Assembly (NCBI GenBank): GCA_965649205.1
Contig: CBFGJV010000001.1
Span: 1 to 64,000 of the forward strand
From: a candidate division WOR-3 bacterium
Lineage (GTDB): Bacteria; Hydrothermota; Tepidihabitantia; Tepidihabitantales; Tepidihabitantaceae
Length of the DNA stretch: 64,000 nt
Direction: 5' to 3'
Position 1 is the stretch's first letter. Each line of letters begins with the position of its first letter. The notes beneath the pieces are model-generated. The model saw nothing but the letters and a program-made list of their open reading frames with translations. It had not been told where the DNA came from and did no database searches. Made by a program: the position numbers and the translations under genes. Shown here one piece after another: positions 4,904 through 41,991 of this stretch.

Positions 4904-5659
4904 ATGATTCGGGTTTGTGTAATTGGTGCAGCTGGTAAGATGGGCAGTACTGTTTGCCGACAGATTGTCGGCTGCAGTAAGTTAAGATTGACCTCAGTCA
5001 TTGAGCGGAATGACCATCCGGAATTAGGCAAGACTTTCTTTGATTGTAAACTCGACTGCGACCTGGCTGCGGGTTTGACGACCGCGGATGTGGTGGTGGA
5101 TTTTGCTCTGGCACCTGGTGTGGTCGAAAGGGCGACTGTTAGTGCTGAAGCGGGTAAGCCTTACGTGTGCGGAGTAACTGGTTTGTCTGACGTCGAGATG
5201 GAAGCGCTGCGCAGAGTGAGTACGCGAATCCCTGTTGTGTATGCGGCAAATTTCTCTGTCGGTATCAATGTCCTTTATGCACTCGTGGCCAATGCGGTAA
5301 ATATGCTAGGTCCGGGGTATGATGTAGAGATTATAGAGATACACCACCGGTCCAAACGCGACGCACCTTCCGGTACAGCCAGGAAATTGGCTGAATTTCT
5401 GCTGGCAGCAAGGAATAGAGAGATAACGACGGCAGGGCAGGTCCCGATTCACTCCTTACGAGCAGGTGATGTTGTGGGTGATCATACAGTTATTTTTGCT
5501 GGCCGGGGTGAGAGGTTAGAGTTTACTCACCGCGCTGCGAGCAGAGAGGCGTTTGGCTCCGGGGTTATCGCCGCTATATGTTTTGTGTTTGGCGCCAAAC
5601 CAGGATTTTACTCTATGTCCGATGTACTCGCTGCTGGTCGGGATACTTGCAAGGCGTGA
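4904..5659 (+). CDS. dapB: 4-hydroxy-tetrahydrodipicolinate reductase
   Basis: GAAGKMG Rossmann motif, ANFSVG, EIHHRSKRDAPSGTA, GDVVGDHTV; follows dapA. Confidence 0.95.
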   Translation: MIRVCVIGAAGKMGSTVCRQIVGCSKLRLTSVIERNDHPELGKTFFDCKLDCDLAAGLTTADVVVDFALAPGVVERATVSAEAGKPYVCGVTGLSDVEMEALRRVSTRIPVVYAANFSVGINVLYALVANAVNMLGPGYDVEIIEIHHRSKRDAPSGTARKLAEFLLAARNREITTAGQVPIHSLRAGDVVGDHTVIFAGRGERLEFTHRAASREAFGSGVIAAICFVFGAKPGFYSMSDVLAAGRDTCKA

Positions 5660-29261: not shown

Positions 29262-30311
29262 ATGAAAAGGTTCAGCAAAGCGACAAGAATAATCAGAATT
29301 GCGTTTCTGTGTGTTTTGGTGCTGGGAACATTCGCCAGTTCTCAGGCGGCGTTTGCCAAGATAGGCATGGCCGGACTCACCTTCCTGAAGATAGGAGTGG
29401 GGCGCAGCACAGGAATGGGAGATGCCTTCGTCGCTGTGGCGGATGACGCCACAGCTGCGTATTGGAATCCGGCCGGGCTGGCCCTAGTTTCGGGCAGGCA
29501 AGCGCTGGTAAACCACATAGATTGGATAGCGGACGTCAGCCACGAATACGTGGCAGTCGTACTACCCGCAGGGCAGGGAAATCTGGGCATAAATGTCACC
29601 GCGCTATCAATGGGCAAGATGGAAGAGACCACCCTGGAGCGCTATCAGGGCACTGGTACTTTCTTCACGGGCACAGACCTGGCCCTGGGCGTGTCTTATG
29701 CCCGGATGGTAACGGAGAAACTGTGCTTTGGACTGACTGCCAAAGTTCTATCTGAAAGAATCTGGGACGTTGGTGCAACCGGCGCAGCATTCGACCTGGG
29801 AGTACACTACAATACCGGCTGGCGGAACTTGCGCCTGGCGATGGCTATTGCCAACTTCGGGCCAGACCTCTCCTTCCACGGCAGCCAGTTGAACTTCATG
29901 CACGACCCCGACTGGGAATGGCCTTGGACGCGGGAACCCATACCCGGCACCTATCTTACCGAGAACTTCTCTCTCCCCGTGATATTCCGCTTCGGCGTGG
30001 CATATGACTTCATCAACGACGAAAACTCACGACTCACCGGCGCCGCGGACCTCAATCACTACAACGACGTAAACGAGAAAGTCAACCTCGGGCTGGAATA
30101 TGTTTACCGCATTCTCTCTCTCCGGGGTGGTTACATAGTGAACACCGATGCCAGCTATGCCTCAGACTTGGGCATTCGGGCCGGTCTTTCGGCAGGGATG
30201 GGTCTGAAACTAAAGCCGGCGGAGAATCTGGGGTTAACTCTGGACTACAGCTATCGTGACCTGGCGCGACTTGGGGGTTCGCACAGATTCACGCTGCTGG
30301 TTGATTTCTAA
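29262..30311 (+). CDS. PorV/UPF0164-like outer-membrane beta-barrel
   Basis: FLKIGVGRSTGMGDAFVAVADDATAAYWNPAGL signature; terminal HRFTLLVDF. Confidence 0.82.
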   Translation: MKRFSKATRIIRIAFLCVLVLGTFASSQAAFAKIGMAGLTFLKIGVGRSTGMGDAFVAVADDATAAYWNPAGLALVSGRQALVNHIDWIADVSHEYVAVVLPAGQGNLGINVTALSMGKMEETTLERYQGTGTFFTGTDLALGVSYARMVTEKLCFGLTAKVLSERIWDVGATGAAFDLGVHYNTGWRNLRLAMAIANFGPDLSFHGSQLNFMHDPDWEWPWTREPIPGTYLTENFSLPVIFRFGVAYDFINDENSRLTGAADLNHYNDVNEKVNLGLEYVYRILSLRGGYIVNTDASYASDLGIRAGLSAGMGLKLKPAENLGLTLDYSYRDLARLGGSHRFTLLVDF

Positions 30312-30330
30312 ACCAATCCGAACGCTTTAT

Positions 30331-30367
30331 GACCAGCTCGGGATTCCCCGGGCCGGTCTCGTTTTAT
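30331..30367 (+). terminator. probable rho-independent terminator between the PorV-like gene and the CRISPR array
   Basis: GACCAGCTCGGG-attc-CCCGGGCCGGTC imperfect stem then TCGTTTTAT. Confidence 0.55.
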
Positions 30368-30380
30368 ATGGCAACCGCAC

Positions 30381-30557
30381 TTGTCGGTAGGTGAGATTCG
30401 GAATGTCAACTGCTACTGTCAAGCGTAAGAACAAAACTTCCCGACTACGTGGTGTCGGTAGGTGAGATTCGGAATGTCAACTGCTACTTGGCACGACTCG
30501 GCAAAGCATTGCAGGCAGTGGGTGTCGGTAGGTGAGATTCGGAATGTCAACTGCTAC
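30381..30557 (-). CRISPR. CRISPR array, 3 x 36-bp repeats, 2 spacers (35 and 34 bp)
   Basis: Repeat (minus sense) GTAGCAGTTGACATTCCGAATCTCACCTACCGACAC at 30381-30416 (terminal base mutated), 30452-30487 and 30522-30557; spacers 30417-30451 and 30488-30521. Confidence 0.95.
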
Positions 30558-30749
30558 AGCGCGTGACCGAGGTTGTTGTTCCATGCGAACTTGGAATGCA
30601 TTTTGCGAGAATCTGCAGGAGGTGCGCCGCAAACTTTCAGTTTTGCAGGTATGCCTACTGACTAACTTCAGTTAGTAGCAAATCTTATTCTTCTGCGAGC
30701 ATCCCTTGACCCCCGTTGCACCACCTGCATGCTCGCACTCCAGATTGTC

Positions 30750-30843
30750 AGAGAGCAGTTGACTTTCCTATTATCTACCACTCGGTGCCAAGGCCGTTGA
30801 AGGCGACGACACGTTCCGAGTATTCTGCACCCCTCTAGGATGC
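30750..30843 (-). ncRNA. tracrRNA of the type V-B system
   Basis: Lies between cas2 and the array; anti-repeat at 30754-30779 (AGCAGTTGAC exact, TTCC, CTACC) and second element at 30807-30812 (GUGUCG, complementary to the repeat 3' end); 5' hairpin and ACUCGG/CCGAGU long-range stem. Confidence 0.85.
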
Positions 30844-30849
30844 GGTTTA

Positions 30850-30877
30850 AGTATATGTGCCGAAAGGAAATCGTCAA
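30850..30877 (-). promoter_or_regulatory. tracrRNA promoter (TTGACG-N16-TATACT)
   Basis: -35 at 30877-30872, -10 at 30855-30850; predicted +1 near 30843, the first base of the 5' hairpin. Confidence 0.7.
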
Positions 30878-30903
30878 GTGTATCCGGAGTCGAGCTTCGG
30901 AGG

Positions 30904-31194
30904 TTAGACTATGATAGTGCGTTCTTCACCTTCCGGTAAGGGCTGTCCGAGATTCGTGGCAGCCTGGCGCGCCGCAGCTTCGTCCGCGCCGAGGTCTATA
31001 ATCAGTGCCTGGTCTTCTTTGAGGTTCATGGCTTCCTCCAGGGCAGACTGCATACGTACGCGGTCAATCTCTTTTAGAGTGCAGAAGAAGACCGAGTACT
31101 GCCAGTGTTCTCCGTAGCCTTTCATTATCTTGAAGACCCGGCGCCAGCGCGCCGGGCTGGAGATGTCGTAACAGACAAGATAGGAGCGACGCAT
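30904..31194 (-). CDS. cas2: CRISPR-associated endonuclease Cas2 (96 aa)
   Basis: MRRSYLVCYDIS...GYGEHWQYSVF...D; ATG overlaps the cas1 stop (TAATG). Confidence 0.95.
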   Translation of the reverse strand: MRRSYLVCYDISSPARWRRVFKIMKGYGEHWQYSVFFCTLKEIDRVRMQSALEEAMNLKEDQALIIDLGADEAAARQAATNLGQPLPEGEERTIIV

Positions 31195-32923
31195 TAGCGA
31201 GTAGTCAGGAAGGAGAGAGTGGAGATTTCTCCTGTGAGCCACGCGGCGATCATCTTAGCGTGGAGATAAAGCATTCGGCGATAGCTCAAACGGTAGTCGA
31301 ATACCGGATGAGTGACAATTGTATCCATTCTGCGCGCAAAGGCTTTGAAGAATGCTTTGCGGCCAGCTTCGGTGAAATTGCAGCCAGCCACAGTGTCGAG
31401 GAAGTGACCGCCGGTAAGTTCTTCTTTGTTGAATGCGGTGATGGCGATTGAGTCGGCGATGATGGGCCGAAATGGTTCCATCAGGTCTAGCGCCAGGGCG
31501 GGACGGCCGGGACGAGACACATGGAAACCACCGATGGAAGGTTCCAGCCGGGCCATTCTGAGCGCAGCGGCGCATTCAAGACATAGCATTGAGTACGCCA
31601 TCGAAAGGCAGGAGTTTACCGGATCAGGTGGTGGTCGGCGGGAGCGGCCGTTGGCGTCAAAGCGTGACGCTTCCGGCCCCTTGAGCATTCCGGCGAAATG
31701 CTGAAAGTACAGCGCAGCAGCCTGACCTTCGTGACTGCGCAGATTGTCAAGGGATTCGGCGACCCGGGCTTTTTCTACTTCCTGCGCCATTTGGGCCAGG
31801 ACGGATGCAGGCAGAGAAGGATGGTTGCGCATCAGGACTGTGCGCTGATTCTGAATTTTGGCGGTGATGAGTGCGCGGGCGAGTTCCAGGCACTTTTCCG
31901 GACGGTCAAGTTGGCGCACTTGTTCCCGGCGCATCTTGGCACTGACCGAGTCCATAGGGTCGATCATTGCCACAAGCCTGCCAGCTGCGGAAAGATACGC
32001 TACTGGTACACATTGGTCGGCTAATGCATGAAGAGCCTGGGTAGAGACCTGCACCGGTCCGACAACAACAAGTCCTTCGAGCCCGGCGAGTGGAATCTGG
32101 CGTTGAGTTACACCCTTGCGGTCTATTACTTCAAGTGCCATCCCGGTGATGCCAATTCTCGTTCCTTGGGACAGTGCCACTAGCTGAATACCCTCGTCAC
32201 GGGGCGGCCACAGCTTGCGGGGTGTGGTTTGTTCAGTTTCGGTTTGGCCGCGCTGGAAGTTGATTTCGTCCGGCAGGCAGATGGGGAGAAGTGAACACCG
32301 GGGCAGCGCGGGTCATTGACGAGAGGGAGAGGGCGGGGGCCTTCGGCGCACTTCTTAGCCGCCTCAAGTATAGTCAGCGCTTCGTTGCGCAACTGCTGGT
32401 CAACCGGAATAGTGAGCTTGCGCTTTTCCTCAGCATAGTACAGCACCGCTTCATTCACTGTGTATCCAGCTTCTTCCAACAGAAGTGCCTGCAGTCCTAC
32501 TTGAATCCGATCCGCAGGCCAAGGCGCAACTACCGTCAATGGTGGTGAATCTGCTTCTTCAGTCTCCTCGGGTGGTGGGGCGATGGAAAGGTGTTTTGGC
32601 GCGCCTTTGCGGTATTCTACTGGTGTGGCCGTGTTACCAAAGATTTCAGCCAAGTCAAGAACGGCGCTGATCCCGAGCCGGGTACTGGAAAGAGCGAGGG
32701 AACGGATGGATTTCGGTCTGTCCGGGTCTTCGTCAGATTCGGTCTCTTCTTTCCTGTCAGACGGAGCGCAGCTCGGTCGGTCAACCCAGCGGTGGACCGC
32801 ACAACCTTGCTCGGTGTCGGGTGAGGGCAGAAAGATGCCCTCAACTGCCATATAGTAGAATAGACGCGGGCAGTAGGCGTACTCGGCGACGTTGCGGCAG
32901 CCCCAGAGTTCAGACTCGCTCAC
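31194..32923 (-). pseudogene. cas4-cas1: cas4-cas1 fusion interrupted by a 1-bp deletion at the G4 run 32300-32303 (576 aa if restored)
   Basis: Cas4 YAYCPR, DLAE..VEYRKG; adding one base gives CPRCSLLPICLPDE (Fe-S cysteines) and reads into Cas1 (HEGQAAALYF, RRPPPDPVN, GFH, ALDLMEPFR). Confidence 0.9.
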
Positions 32924-32926
32924 AGA

Positions 32927-35900
32927 CTACAGACCGGCCCACTCACGCAGGCGTTCAATAACCCGGAATTTCACCTTATTCCAGTACTCGATGGAGCTCT
33001 GCCAACTGTCGGATTCAATTGCTGCGGCTGACACATCGCGCCAGGCGTTGACCACGTCTTTGTCAACGGTTTCACTGAGTAGTTGCCCATTCAGGTCGAA
33101 TGCCTTCGTACCCTTACACCTGTCCTTTGCCGGCTTGCCGTTCCTGCCGCAGGGGATCCACCACCACCTACCTGGCCAGTCCGGGTCCAGGAGCGCGCGC
33201 AGGCCGATGTTGGCGGCAGCATTGAGGTCGGCCTGGATGCCTTTGGACGCGGGCGAGTTTCTGTCCGCCGAGACGAAAAGTTCACCTGAGCGGTCAAGAA
33301 TCCGTACCAACTTTGTGTTGTCGGTGCAGCCGTCCCACTTCGCCTTGAGTGCTTCGAGGTACTCGTTTTCTGCTCCCGCGGCGTTTTTGACCAGCCGTTC
33401 GTAGCGCCTCAGGAATTCCGGCACAGGCAGGTCTGTGCATCTTGCGCCCGGCGCGCCGGTGCGGGAATCCTGCCGGGAGGTGTAATTGGGTATTACTTGG
33501 CGGAGGTGCAGGCCATTCAATTCGCAGGCTTCTTTCAGATACCTGAGAACTTTTACCGCTGACCACTGCATCAATTGACGGTTCTCGCGGCGGGTGCGGA
33601 TCTGCTCAGGTCGATAGGAATCCAGATTTTCAACCACAACGGCATGGCAGGGTTTAAAGCGAGGTTCGACGATTGGTTTCTGAGGCCGCTTACCCCCTTC
33701 CCAATGTTTCTTGTCTTCGGAACCGATGCCCAGCGCGGCTTCCACAATTCTGGAAGCCAGTTGTTTCACCCGGTTCTCGCGCAGATGTTCTAGTGTATTA
33801 AGGACTCGCTGGCCGTAGTTATCCAATCGTATGTCCCCTTTTTCGGGTGTGTTTCTGCGAATGTCTTCCGGCTCCGGTCTTGTCGTGTACGCTTTCATGG
33901 CTTGCCACAATTCGCGGATGTTTGCGAGTCGGTCCAATGACAGGCCACCTACGTGTCGGATAGAGGCATCGGATTTCGGTCTGCCGCGGGGCAGTAGCCA
34001 GTTACGAAGCCAGCGAAGATGACCTTTCCATTGTTTGTCATCTTCGCGCCAACGTGTGGCCCAGATAGTGTGTAGCTTCATCCGTAACTGGGGATTGCCG
34101 GCTAGTTTCGCCGCATAGTCAGTCAGTAGTTTGCGAAGATTCCTATTGTAAGTCTTGAGGTCGGCTTGCGTTGCGTCTTCGCCTGGCGCGGGTGGAAGTT
34201 CCGCCTGCACGTATGTGTGCCACATTTCCTTGGCCCAGTCGTCGCGCCAGCGGGGGCTTTGGAACAGACTCTGCCAGAGTATCAGGGTGTCTTCTAGGAA
34301 CTCTCGGCGCCTGTCCGAGGTCAATTCTTCCCAGCGGTCGCCTGGTAGCGGCTTCCGGTCGGTTTTCAGGTTAAAAGCAATTCGAGCTCGATCGCCATGG
34401 CGGCGAAGTCCGAGCCGGGCGGTGTGGACCGCATCAGCCATCAGGCTGACTATGTTGTGAGGCAGAGGGTTGTCTTTCGTTCGGATGCGACCGAGCCAGG
34501 CTTCGAACTGCTGCACTGCTGCATATTCATCAGGCGATGCCTTCCGGCCGGTTTCATTTTCGCCCTGCAGTTTGATAAGGAATTGCCGGTCGAGTCTTGC
34601 CCACATATCCGGGCCGGTACGACGGTAAATTGTCCTAAGTCTCTTACCGTTTTGACTGAGGAGCAGATGCAGGGCAAGGTCACCGGGTTTCGGCGGCTTT
34701 CGCCCGGCCTCTACGCAGAGGCGGGTCATCTGCTCTTCGGTAAGGGTCTCCCAGACCGCACAGGCTGCCGCGTAGCGGTGGCCGAGGTCCAGTGATAGCA
34801 CACGAAAGCCCGGGAATACGGCATAGCATAAGAGTGGCATGCCCTTTCCGTCCTTTATTGTCTTCAGCGTGCGGCCAGGCTTGCGGGTCCTCGTCCAGGT
34901 TGAGTCTGCGGGCCAAGGTTGCCCAAGGGCCGGCTTCCTGTGTCTGCAGGCGGCCAGAGAAGGTGATGAACCAGTTCAGGCCGTTGCGCATTTTAACAGC
35001 TTTTGCATCCCAGCCATGCTTCTGCACGCGTCTGGCTAGCCGGTCGAGCTGGGCGCGGGGCGCCTGCAGGCGGCCGTTCCAGTCCTTCTCGACGAATACA
35101 TTTAGGACAAGCACAGCTGTTTCGCTGCCGATGCCGGCTGCGGCGCGGCTGAGTCGGTCGGCGCGGCTAACCCGGACACCATCCGGAGCCTGTTCTAACA
35201 TTAGATCAGCAACAAGCCGCTTGGACTGCCAGAGCATTGCGGTTCTGCCAAGCGATGAGCCTGTTACGGTACGTAGCGTAAGCCGCCGGTCGGACAGGGC
35301 GGCGCGGAATCGCGCGCGGGCTTTTTCAAGTTGTTTCTGTGCCCTGAGTAGCTGGGTGGGCATTTTTTCACCAGTGGTTTCGCCACAATACGCGAGAGAC
35401 TGTTTTAATCCGTCCACTTTCAAAACCGCTTTCAGGCAGGAGTTCGCAGCTTTGTGTACGGCAAAAGAAATTGCCCAGCGAGACTTGCCGTAGTCGCAGA
35501 ACACCGGATGAGATAATGGATGAGGATGACGATAGGCCGGGACTTTGAAGCGGCGCATCTTCGCCTGGGCGTCGCGTGCGTTAACATAGTCAAGGAGCGG
35601 CTGCGGGTCGGGTCTGCCGTTGCGCAACCAGACGATGCTGGCGCCTTCTGCAGACAATGCCTCGAACAGAGTTATGTCGCCGAACTTCTCGATTTCGTCC
35701 TGCAGTTCTCTGGCCGCAGCCTTGCGGTCTTCGGCGGTGCGGCAGTCTCTTGCAGACCAGGCTTTCACAATTTCTTCCCAACTTTCTACCGCCCGGGGCT
35801 GAATTTGGAGCGGGCCGACCGCACCAGTCAGGCGGCCACGTTCTTCCAAGAATTCGTCCAGCCATTGTTCCACATCGGTCGGAACCTGCTTTTGGGCCTG

Positions 35901-37100
35901 TTCCGCTAACTTCTGGCGGTTGGCTTCGGCCCGTTTTTGCCAGGAGTGGGCGGAGGAAACCCTCCTGAGTGCGAGATCCAGCATTACCGAGTACTCGTCT
36001 GTCAGGTTCCGGCCACAGACAAAGGGTAGGCCGGTGGCTTTCTCGACGCGGGCGCGCAATGTCTCGGCCCATTTGGGCACGTTTCTAGCACCCTTTTTTA
36101 TTTTCTCCATTTTCTCGTCGGCCTCGGCTGCCAGTTTGGCCTGCATAGTTGAGATCGTATCCGATGTTAGTACCGGCATGGCGTAAACTTTCTCAATAGC
36201 CAGTTTTCCCTGCGAGGGGCGACCTTTCCATCCGATGGCTTTGTAGATGCTGCTGAGCAAGTCTCCCTTTTCCGTCGCCTGAAGAAGTGTCAGAAGGTGG
36301 CTAGCCAAGGCAGAGCCGGACTGACCCTCGTAGTGGCTCAGGTCCGCAGTAGCAAGCGTGCGCAGCTTTTCTGCTATTCGCTCCAGGTCGCTTTTTTCTC
36401 CAGTTCCCCAACAGTTCACGATCCAGCTGCGAGCCTTCTCTCGAAATTTTGTTTCGTGCGCGGCCGCCGCGGTTGATCCGGATTCTGGTAGCTTGAGGAA
36501 TTCGTCTAAGTCCCCAAATAACTCTCTAATCGCCGACTGCGCTTGTTCCCTGGTAAGGGTCTTATCGTTCTGCGCTTCCACGTCGAATGCCTTGGCGCGG
36601 TTGACCCAGACCGCGTCTTCTCGAATGGCGGCACAGAGCGAATCTTTGCAGTCGGCAACCCAGGTCTCGATTTCCTCCTTGGTCAGACCACGTGAGGCGA
36701 GAACTTCCTAGAGCGCGGCAACGATTTTGCACTTGCGGTCGGGCGCGGCGTCTTTGCCGGTGGCCACGATGTACTCGGCCGGAGCACCGTCGGCGGATTC
36801 AACCGAGAGCCAGGAAAGTGCGAGCATTATACGACGGTGACGAGTTTCTTGGTCGTCGGGACGGCGTTCGGTTTTCTTCTGGCCTTTTCCTTCGGTTACC
36901 GATAGCTCTGTAAGACGGTGGTCCAGACCACCGCGGAGGGTGAGGAGCCAGTCAGCGAAGACCTTGGTTCCCTTGTTGATTGTCTCGTGCGTACGCCATA
37001 GTGCCTCGCGCCAAGCCTCATCTTCGCTTCCTTCTCTGCCCGGTATGCCGCGCAGGCGCAGCGTGTAGGCCCGTTGGGTAATTGTCGCAGACGTCGTCAC
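32927..37100 (-). pseudogene. cas12b: type V-B effector Cas12b (C2c1), ~1390 aa if restored; in-frame TAG at 36708-36710 and +1 frameshift at A3 34805-34807
   Basis: Three collinear ORF pieces; N-terminal TQRAYTLRL..LWRTHE; RuvC-I (L)RVLSLDLG, WARLDRQFLIKLQGE, RuvC-II PCHAVVVENL..RRENRQLMQWS, TSRQDSRTGAPGARC, RuvC-III QADLNAAANI; followed by cas4/1, cas2, tracr and array. Confidence 0.93.
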
Positions 37101-40530: not shown

Positions 40531-41991
40531 ATGAGACCAAAGTTGAAGCTGCTTAGCGAGGGACTTGTTGAGCAGATTGTAGCCGAGGCACTGGACCTGC
40601 TGGCCGTGTTGGGAGTAGAAATAAACAACCCCGGGCTGGTTGAACTGCTGTTGGCCCAGGGCGCAGAATGGGATACCGAGAAGAAAAGGTTGCTGTTGCC
40701 CGAGTCCATGGTGAGGCAGGCTTTGGCTGCTGCTCCGTGTTCGTTCCGGTTGTATGATGTGCGAGGGGAGATGACAAATGAACTGGGGGGTGATAATGTG
40801 TATTTCACCCCGGGTTCTGCGGCGTTGAACATTCTGGATGCAGATACCGGCGAGATGAGACGACCACAGACGCGTGATTACGTGCAGTATGCCAAGCTGG
40901 TGTCGCGTTTAGAACACATTGCGGCCCAGTCCACAGCCCTGATACCGGCAGATGTGCCGGAGAAGATTTCGGACAGCTATCGGTTGTATCTGTCGTTGCT
41001 GTTCTGTGAGAAGCCGGTGGTTACCGGCTGTTTTACGATAGAGTCCTTTCGAGTAATGAAGGAAATGCAGGTGGCGGTGCGGGGTTCTGAAGAGGAGCTT
41101 GTCGCCCGGCCCCTGACCATTTTTTCCTGCTGTCCGACCGCGCCTCTGAAGTGGAGCGAGGTGACTTCGCAGAATGTGGTGGATTGTGCGCGGGCCGGTA
41201 TCCCGGTGGAGTTTATCTCCATGCCTTTGTCCGGCTTTGTGGCGCCTGTCACCCTGGTGGGCACTTTGATTCAGCATACGGCGGAGACCCTGTCGGGTGT
41301 GGTTATCAGTCAAACAGTCGCGCCGGGTTCGCCGATTCTTTATGGCGGTTCGCCGGCGATTTTTGATGTGCGCCGAGAAACTACCCCGATGGGCGCCATA
41401 GAGACGATGATGATTGACTGTGCCAGTGCAGAAATAGGTAAGTACCTGGGTTTGCCCACGCAGGCTTACATCGGTCTTTCCGACGCGAAGCTGCTGGACG
41501 CACAAGCCGGGCTGGAAACAGGCATCGGCGCAGTTCTGGCCGCCTTGGCAGGCGTGAACAGCGTGTCTGGTCCGGGCATGCTGGATTTTGAGAGTTGTCA
41601 GAGTCTGGAGAAGCTGGTGCTGGATAATGAGATATGCGGCATGGCGCTGCGGCTGGTGCGGGGTATTGAGCCGCACGAGGACTTTCCGGCCTTGAATCTT
41701 TTCACCGAACTGTTGAGTGAGAAACATTTGCTTATCAGTCCGCATACCAGGCGCTGGCTGAAGACAGAGCACTACTTTCCCGGGCCGGTGATAGACCGGG
41801 CAAACAGAGGACGCTGGCAGGCTGCCGGTAGTCCTACTCTTTTGGCACGGGCGCGCCGGGAAAAGGAGCGCTTGATCGCCAGCTGGCAGCCGTCCCGTCT
41901 GGCAGAAGAGACAAAAAAGGAACTTACCCGGCTGATGACCACAGAGGCCCGGCGCTGGGGGATGGAACAGCTGCCAGAACTGCCCGCATGA
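40531..41991 (+). CDS. MttB-superfamily (trimethylamine methyltransferase-like) corrinoid methyltransferase, non-pyrrolysine
   Basis: APVTLVGTLIQHTAETLSG, PGSPILYG, MGAIE, SDAKLLDAQAGLE, GMLDFE..SLEKLVLDNEI; Leu, not TAG, at the Pyl-equivalent position. Confidence 0.9.
   Translation: MRPKLKLLSEGLVEQIVAEALDLLAVLGVEINNPGLVELLLAQGAEWDTEKKRLLLPESMVRQALAAAPCSFRLYDVRGEMTNELGGDNVYFTPGSAALNILDADTGEMRRPQTRDYVQYAKLVSRLEHIAAQSTALIPADVPEKISDSYRLYLSLLFCEKPVVTGCFTIESFRVMKEMQVAVRGSEEELVARPLTIFSCCPTAPLKWSEVTSQNVVDCARAGIPVEFISMPLSGFVAPVTLVGTLIQHTAETLSGVVISQTVAPGSPILYGGSPAIFDVRRETTPMGAIETMMIDCASAEIGKYLGLPTQAYIGLSDAKLLDAQAGLETGIGAVLAALAGVNSVSGPGMLDFESCQSLEKLVLDNEICGMALRLVRGIEPHEDFPALNLFTELLSEKHLLISPHTRRWLKTEHYFPGPVIDRANRGRWQAAGSPTLLARARREKERLIASWQPSRLAEETKKELTRLMTTEARRWGMEQLPELPA

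Follow-up and report, generated by a model that had tools for sequence, protein, structure and literature searches.

The window, by which we mean the whole 64,000-nucleotide stretch of DNA analyzed here, contains on its minus strand, at 30843-30754, what we identify, with a probability of about 0.9, as the tracrRNA gene of an adjacent, broken type V-B CRISPR locus of the ChCas12b clade. Judged from its sequence, this type V-B tracrRNA belongs to the ChCas12b clade and not to the AacCas12b clade, and it is ordinary in kind, one more ChCas12b-type guide. The gene lies on the array's strand between cas2 (31194-30904) and the array; upstream of it are cas4-cas1 and a large cas12b gene. The features of the locus are as follows.

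32927..37100, minus strand: cas12b, about 1390 codons, ChCas12b clade, with intact RuvC motifs but interrupted by an in-frame TAG (36710-36708) and, near 34810, by a frameshift
31194..32923, minus strand: cas4-cas1 fusion, split by a frameshift near 32300
30904..31194, minus strand: cas2
30850..30877, minus strand: sigma-70-type promoter, TTGACG-N16-TATACT (10/12), predicted to drive tracrRNA, leader and array
30827..30843, minus strand: stem 1 with a conserved UA-N-AG loop; 98.7% of cells paired, changes on both sides at 4/4 pairs; equivalent to ChCas12b stem 1/L1
30816..30821, minus strand: 5' strand of stem 2; covariation and ChCas12b match
30808..30812, minus strand: short anti-repeat GUGUC (repeat:anti-repeat duplex 2), pairing with the last 5 nt of the repeat; same in ChCas12b, complementary in 89/89 loci
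30793..30804, minus strand: stem 3 (30804-30802 with 30795-30793) and loop L5; all three pairs formed in 70/70 loci of equal loop length
30786..30792, minus strand: linker L6, whose GGCA and next C are able to pair with GUGUC in the free RNA
30780..30785, minus strand: 3' strand of stem 2; covariation and ChCas12b match
30775..30779, minus strand: proximal anti-repeat GGUAG, which forms repeat:anti-repeat duplex 1 with repeat positions 27-31; in locus L159 both sides of this duplex are changed
30754..30768, minus strand: distal anti-repeat, 4 bp plus 10 bp, GGAA and GUCAACUGCU, pairing with repeat positions 3-17; z -5.7 against shuffles
30745..30757, minus strand: predicted boxA-like antitermination site, sharing 4 nt with the end of the anti-repeat; 10/12 to the E. 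coli consensus
30558..30744, minus strand: CRISPR leader, with GCGAG at 30736 and CTCGC at 30699 and 30609, at a fixed distance to the first repeat
30381..30557, minus strand: CRISPR array of three 36-nt repeats and spacers of 34 and 35 nt; last repeat with an altered final base

Sequence, pairing and promoter scans found the stems, both repeat pairings and the promoter exactly where the original prediction had placed them on an RNA read from 30843; this presumed start lies 7 nt below the -10. Taken as a single sequence, the RNA folds modestly (z -2.26 for 69 nt and -1.17 for 90 nt), and several unrelated 50-nt tiles of the window out-pair the anti-repeat tile with the repeat (-36.4 versus -30.4 kcal/mol). 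Rfam had no match to the RNA, either in the whole window at gathering score or in 30550-30910 at E<=5. These single-sequence statistics are weak; what decides the matter is the comparison with related loci.

Related loci were fetched by alignment query (79 plus 78, or 157), and the window was added to them; a genome scan with a single protein query returned no loci. With an iterated profile, the RNA was recovered from 128 of these 158 loci, and the addition of two loci from the host family brought the set to 130 anchored of 160, representing 107 distinct genes, 89 of them with a full repeat. Five profile hits were left unanchored (L072, L077, L082, L103 and L136), three anchors were moved by hand (L092, L109 and L140), and in two array loci (L032 and L073) the tracrRNA was not found. 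A covariance model was built from 75 of the 107 genes with the window left out; the initial collection of relatives was seeded with the sequence of the window itself, and kin among them are not independent. In the 75 relatives, 91.3% of the cells of the named structure are paired, and 13 of 13 pairs change on both sides, with a covariation score of 0.572 versus 0.187 in shuffled and at most 0.116 in slid alignments. The held-out model hits the window only at 30770-30844 on the minus strand (73.1 bits, E = 9e-16; next site, 10.8 bits), its single hit in the whole genome. The original prediction of a Cas12b tracrRNA that has a promoter of its own and pairs with the repeat in two duplexes is borne out, as is that of selection on the pairings, the latter across the family by covariation among loci. 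The model finds genes of this RNA kind, for which Rfam has no matching entry.

A promoter-like site (9 or more of 12) precedes 59 of the 107 tracrRNA genes, compared to 3.0 in shuffles (maximum, 10), and 50 of the 59 are at the window's spacing, 10 to 12 nt to the stem 1 loop. The relatives vary in layout. In L131 (2210-2334), L039 and L140, the region from stem 3 to stem 2' is enlarged to about 37 to 49 nt, versus 22. In L001, L008, L016 and many others, the array and tracrRNA lie approximately 300 to 450 nt past the end of cas12b, with no cas4-cas1-cas2 between. L038 has a second tracrRNA-like match on the opposite strand (5406-5462).

The nearest solved protein to the window cas12b product is ChCas12b (9KLN; E = 2.5e-133); the other solved Cas12b chains match at E values of 1e-13 to 1e-15 over the RuvC part only and leave the middle piece unmatched. 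NF033949 (Cas12b) scores above its cut-off for both large pieces of the broken gene, and the protein falls outside the AacCas12b/BthCas12b clade, to which its similarity is remote. Loci L155-L157 carry the tracrRNA sequence and repeat end printed as ChCas12b primers in PMC12204704. The L157 protein (1,496 aa) agrees with the 9KLN chain where compared, with one named residue differing, and the read-through protein of the window is 46% identical to it. Among the 28 RNA-contacting residues that PMC12204704 names, 16 are identical in the window and 12 differ or are gapped, and the four duplex 2 contact residues in its list are all kept. The RNA of the window matches that of L155 element by element, with 31 of 42 core nucleotides identical, and no gap, from stem 2 to stem 2'.

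The short duplex of AacCas12b reads GUGCC:GGCAC, and the original prediction, using AacCas12b as its model, had taken GUGUC:GACAC for a compensatory change in the window locus. ChCas12b is the right comparison, and because its guide has the identical duplex, of five pairs in the structure (PDB 9KLN-9KLQ; PMC12204704), we regard GUGUC:GACAC as the default of the clade and not as a local change. It occurs in 84 of 89 loci, with GCGUC:GACGC in 4 and GUGCC:GGCAC in 1; only these three pentamers were allowed as anchors, and their pairing with the repeat was left free. Compensatory changes in duplex 2 do exist in nature: in L126, L133, L135, L145 and L039, the repeat ends in GACGC or GGCAC with a matching GCGUC or GUGCC. 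These five variants represent about two events. The predicted pairing of GUGUC(G) with the repeat end held for five pairs; the sixth is not supported, as it shows no covariation and the ChCas12b structure has five. A general Watson-Crick pair at the position of ChCas12b -70:-55 was rejected, being without covariation.

Repeat and anti-repeat also match locus by locus in duplex 1. The proximal part pairs with its own repeat at 6.75 of 8 positions versus 5.36 with foreign repeats (maximum in 10,000 permutations, 5.72). When the anti-repeat is taken at full length, the repeat of the window comes first among 79 (-27.7; next, -20.3); across the 89 loci, the cognate repeat leads in 37 and is among the top three in 57. 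The distal duplex is strong and largely locus specific (z -2.5 to -5.7), L042 and L159 cross-pairing, and the long duplex covaries among the window, L042, L159 and L169. GGUAG:CUACC can pair as originally described, but in the window this register is tied with a shifted 7-bp register (-27.4 each); L159 changes both sides of duplex 1 in the canonical register.

In the lowest fold of the free RNA, GUGUC is buried in an internal helix with the GGCAC of L6 (-25.3 versus -18.0 kcal/mol for the open form), and the repeat duplex returns about -9 kcal/mol. One could read the helix as a selected switch that keeps the free tracrRNA closed until the repeat arrives. It is the minimum-energy fold, and all five pairs are possible in 70 of 107 loci; it is not possible in the 5 variant-pentamer loci and does not covary there. 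The conservation of these bases is also explained by the tertiary and cation contacts that L6 bases make in the ChCas12b structure (PMC12204704). We consider a selected switch improbable.

Behind the anti-repeat, the leader carries motifs that are phased to the array. In 59 of 89 loci, CTCG[CG] stands 52 nt upstream of the repeat, and in 10 it stands at 51 nt (69 of 89 at 51 to 52 nt), with further copies at 141 to 144 nt, and GCGAG lies 170 to 171 or 177 to 181 nt from the first repeat. Because this spacing is fixed to the first repeat, we assign the GCGAG/CTCGC stretch to the leader and not to the tracrRNA; the motifs are probably binding sites of the Cas4-Cas1-Cas2 integrase. The inverted repeat GCGAG...CTCGC at 30736-30695 could instead suggest that the tracrRNA lies further downstream, as an anti-repeat with hairpins at 30774-30624, or that the interval is only leader DNA. 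This idea is hardly credible: the motifs keep their distance to the first repeat and not to the tracrRNA core, the fold there is unremarkable (z -1.28), and both the ChCas12b homology and the model hit fall at 30844-30770. The match to the solved ChCas12b guide refutes it.

The boxA-like motif, CTC(T/C)TGACAA, matches 10 of 12 positions of the E. coli consensus printed in PMC13753749 and has a G as in the B. subtilis form. Elsewhere in the genome, 30762-30738 finds its best match in the leader of the 23S rRNA gene of the host. The boxA-like word was found in 70 of 107 loci (5.3 in shuffled sequences) and was missing in 37, with a pattern chosen after the loci had been viewed; a stricter pattern was found in 42 of 89 loci (2.7 in shuffled sequences). 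The host genome encodes nusB and rho, and its three other arrays have no such boxA within 350 nt. Between the tracrRNA core and the array, promoter-like sites occur in 6 of 89 loci (5.6 in shuffled sequences) and terminator-like sites in 15 of 89, though not in the interval of the window. In such a transcript, the anti-repeat is predicted to form a cis duplex with repeat 1 (p about 1). A TTGACA-like word after the anti-repeat was tried as a -35 box and rejected, as a -10 follows it in 0 of 70 loci in the sense and 4 of 70 in the antisense direction; the promoter hit on the plus strand is therefore likely due to chance.

The boxA-like site, which overlaps the end of the anti-repeat and has its best genomic match in the host's 23S rRNA leader, suggests a single tracrRNA-leader-array transcript. 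Based on the sequence features, the tracrRNA is likely the front end of the array transcript, with tracrRNA, boxA, leader and array as one unit, and from the boxA just behind the anti-repeat, which many loci of the clade share, tracrRNA and array are expected to form one transcription unit. The stand-alone transcript of 90 to 100 nt that had been expected is doubtful, since a scan of the window interval found no terminator after the anti-repeat and the boxA-like site overlaps its end.

RNase III had no match in the host genome (97.95% complete) by TIGR02191 or PF00636, and an unfiltered custom-profile search of all six frames gave a best E of 2.1, compared to 5e-26 for the held-out positive control, which was one sequence (L194). 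In the host family (f1), only one of 44 genomes (G024) yielded RNase III, and the five that hold V-B parts (G000, G004, G006, G017 and G018) yielded none; all 44 are MAGs, the five being 63 to 98% complete, and a very diverged RNase III could be missed. Elsewhere in the order sample, RNase III was found only in family f2 (2/2). The G024 gene (L194, on G024:C28) sits at the end of a 5.7-kb stretch with ORFs that have no match in the window's genome, and the contig may be foreign. In the host, the 16S rRNA gene is followed by a hairpin and a U-run, and the 23S rRNA gene, with its own upstream region, is on another contig; such unlinked rRNA genes have been associated with RNase III loss (bioRxiv 10.1101/705046). 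The host has RNase E/G and RNase Y, and its genome gave no match to RNase J.

An alternative hypothesis is the classic route, in which a separate short tracrRNA with its own end and an independently promoted array form a long duplex that is cut by an RNase III too diverged, or left unassembled, to be found. The long duplex is kept and covaries in the window, L042, L159 and L169, which is what one would expect if RNase III cut it; for tracrRNA-using type V systems, the 2025 classification predicts the use of this enzyme (PMC12669027); and RNase III is present in 48 of 50 other Cas12b hosts (50 of 56 chosen genomes searched). Against this stand the 43 of 44 family genomes in which RNase III was not found, the unfiltered profile search, the unlinked rRNA genes, the boxA-like site and the absence of a second promoter above chance level. 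We judge the classic route unlikely and infer, from the host family in which RNase III was not found, that guides would be released by other means. In a limited literature search on type V tracrRNA maturation without RNase III, the only source was the classification paper itself (PMC12669027).

The host genome does not hold the unbroken cas12b and cas4-cas1 that a working type V-B system requires: cas12b has the TAG and one frameshift, and cas4-cas1 the other. Homologues have mostly E, K or R at the TAG position (115 aligned), and among 112 related loci with both halves of cas4-cas1, 109 have them as a single ORF. The system might still be active in the organism if the breaks were assembly errors or the TAG were read as pyrrolysine. 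Both frameshifts sit in short homopolymer runs, the catalytic motifs are intact, and Rfam reports a PYLIS_3 match at 41476-41575 on the plus strand, barely above the gathering score and inside an mttB-like gene without an in-frame stop. However, comparison with a same-genus genome showed no frameshift in 96 ORFs (46,196 aa), and pylS was not found in the host genome, nor was tRNA-Pyl among its 44 tRNAs. In that comparison, three ORFs had stops: one with a slightly shorter C terminus and two that are apparently wrong-frame ORFs. We rejected pyrrolysine read-through and regard an active system in this organism as very unlikely. Because the 96 compared ORFs contain no frameshift, the three lesions are probably real, and the breakage of cas12b appears recent because its RuvC motifs are still intact.

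Several further observations concern the state of the locus. The host genome (G000) has more cas1 genes and three other arrays (14, 6 and 37 repeats) on contigs C20, C22, C31 and C43, which leaves room for other CRISPR systems to stand in for the V-B locus now that it is broken. A look through sequencing runs turned up one DNA run, with a small share, and no RNA run. The contigs of the DNA run span 30554-30830 with 6 differences in 277 nt, 4 of which were displayed (three in the leader and one at 30772, in the internal loop), and its cas2 differs at 15 of 367 positions, too few changes to test selection. Behind the array, 30205-30411 is an 88% match to a 4260-nt contig of run X1, which has higher depth, breaks off within the last repeat and ceases to match before 30205. 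Viral contigs contained no exact copy of a 22-nt piece of spacer 1, and neither spacer had an above-chance match within its own genome.

The family's V-B loci could be hand-me-downs that have never worked well without RNase III and decay, the window tracrRNA then being a relic under no present selection. The window has three lesions and only two spacers, V-B parts occur in only 5 of 44 family genomes (of these five loci, 1 is known to be broken and 3 are cut by contig ends), and the same-genus genome has nothing matching the V-B locus beside the flanking gene. Against this, the proteins of the window and G017 form one clade with L042, L080 and four database proteins (support, 1.0, in a FastTree tree built without L126, L145 and L170), and the window and family proteins are 54 to 68% identical. 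Repeat and anti-repeat change together. In G018, neither cas12b nor cas4-cas1 is broken, and the array has 13 identical repeats with different spacers; it lies on a contig where flanking genes have 60 to 72% identical counterparts in the window's genome. On the G018 and G006 contigs together, the counterparts are 50 to 72% identical, and both contigs are likely native because of them. The G018 array does not prove interference, because spacer uptake alone needs no mature guides. We find the hand-me-down account somewhat unlikely.

We propose the following mechanism for the locus. Sequence and covariation show stems 1 to 3, a duplex GUGUC:GACAC of 5 bp and, at the 3' end, a long anti-repeat that fits the locus's own repeat; the RNA is predicted to fold into these stems and to hold the crRNA repeat at two places. 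The scaffold would then be held as established for ChCas12b, mainly via linkers and duplex 2, so as to position the spacer for DNA cleavage (PMC12204704). NusB-S10 bound at boxA would quite probably carry RNA polymerase past Rho through the leader and array; the tracrRNA and the first repeat of that transcript would pair in cis, much as in a single guide with a long loop, and later repeats would need released tracrRNA in trans. [quoted passage not shown] In the host strain, the RNA would very probably be left without a working partner, because cas12b is a recent pseudogene.

Taken as a whole, we tentatively speculate, at somewhat less than even odds, that the V-B clade has been resident and diverging in a family without RNase III, with a boxA-antiterminated tracrRNA-leader-array transcript whose tracrRNA and first repeat pair in cis to make a natural single guide with a long loop, and with Cas12b RuvC releasing the crRNAs. 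If true, this would overturn the predicted need for RNase III in type V systems that use a tracrRNA, and the intact G018 locus, with its 13 repeats, makes the question of RNase III-free maturation testable. Array processing by Cas12b without RNase III would serve multiplexed editing. The sgRNA that the original prediction proposed to build from this RNA by short fusion is plausible on our analysis, because PMC12204704 describes duplex 1 of ChCas12b as uncontacted and only 5 bp of the duplex as ordered; an essentially identical design is already published for ChCas12b.

Compared to known systems, the RNA is closest to the ChCas12b guide of Candidatus Hydrogenedentes as described in PMC12204704: stems 1 to 3 and the lengths of L3 to L6 are equal, and a 5-bp duplex 1 is stacked on stem 2. 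In the window, stem 1 is longer by one pair, L2 is shorter, the duplex 1 and repeat sequences are different, and a large internal loop follows the first 5 bp. The effector is broken in the window, and no RNase III was found in the host's family, in 43 of 44 genomes. The PAM-reading loop of ChCas12b (P289, G290 and K292) corresponds to K-G-R-P at approximately residues 292-295 of the read-through protein. With residues 289 and 292 thus altered, the PAM of the window subclade may differ. The guides of AacCas12b, BthCas12b and BhCas12b (5u30 and 5wti) share the discontinuous arrangement of a long stem and a 5-bp short duplex, an anti-repeat at the 3' end and a gene between the cas genes and the array (PMC11246509 and PMC6546382), but they belong to a different clade with other stem lengths, and PMC12204704 calls the ChCas12b fold "markedly different."

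Phased leader motifs resembling those of the window have been described for type I systems (bioRxiv 2023.05.26.542337). A boxA ahead of CRISPR arrays has also been published (Stringer et al. 2020, as cited in PMC13753749; PMC7862264). As in those boxA-antiterminated arrays, the site lies between promoter and array in a host with NusB and Rho; unlike in them, it follows and overlaps a tracrRNA anti-repeat, a combination with V-B/Cas12b for which a limited literature search found no report. In type V-K, a joint tracrRNA-array precursor was seen on a northern blot, and the tracrRNA is upstream of the array on the same strand, as here; V-K differs in being another subtype, transposon associated and with a much longer RNA (PMC12416283). 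Finally, tracrRNA is kept without RNase III in type II-D of DPANN archaea, for which PMC12669027 leaves the processing enzyme open, and in some II-C systems RNase III is absent or dispensable (PMC6546382). The window shares with these cases a tracrRNA retained where RNase III was not found, and it differs from them in coming from a bacterial family and from subtype V-B, for which PMC12669027 predicts RNase III.
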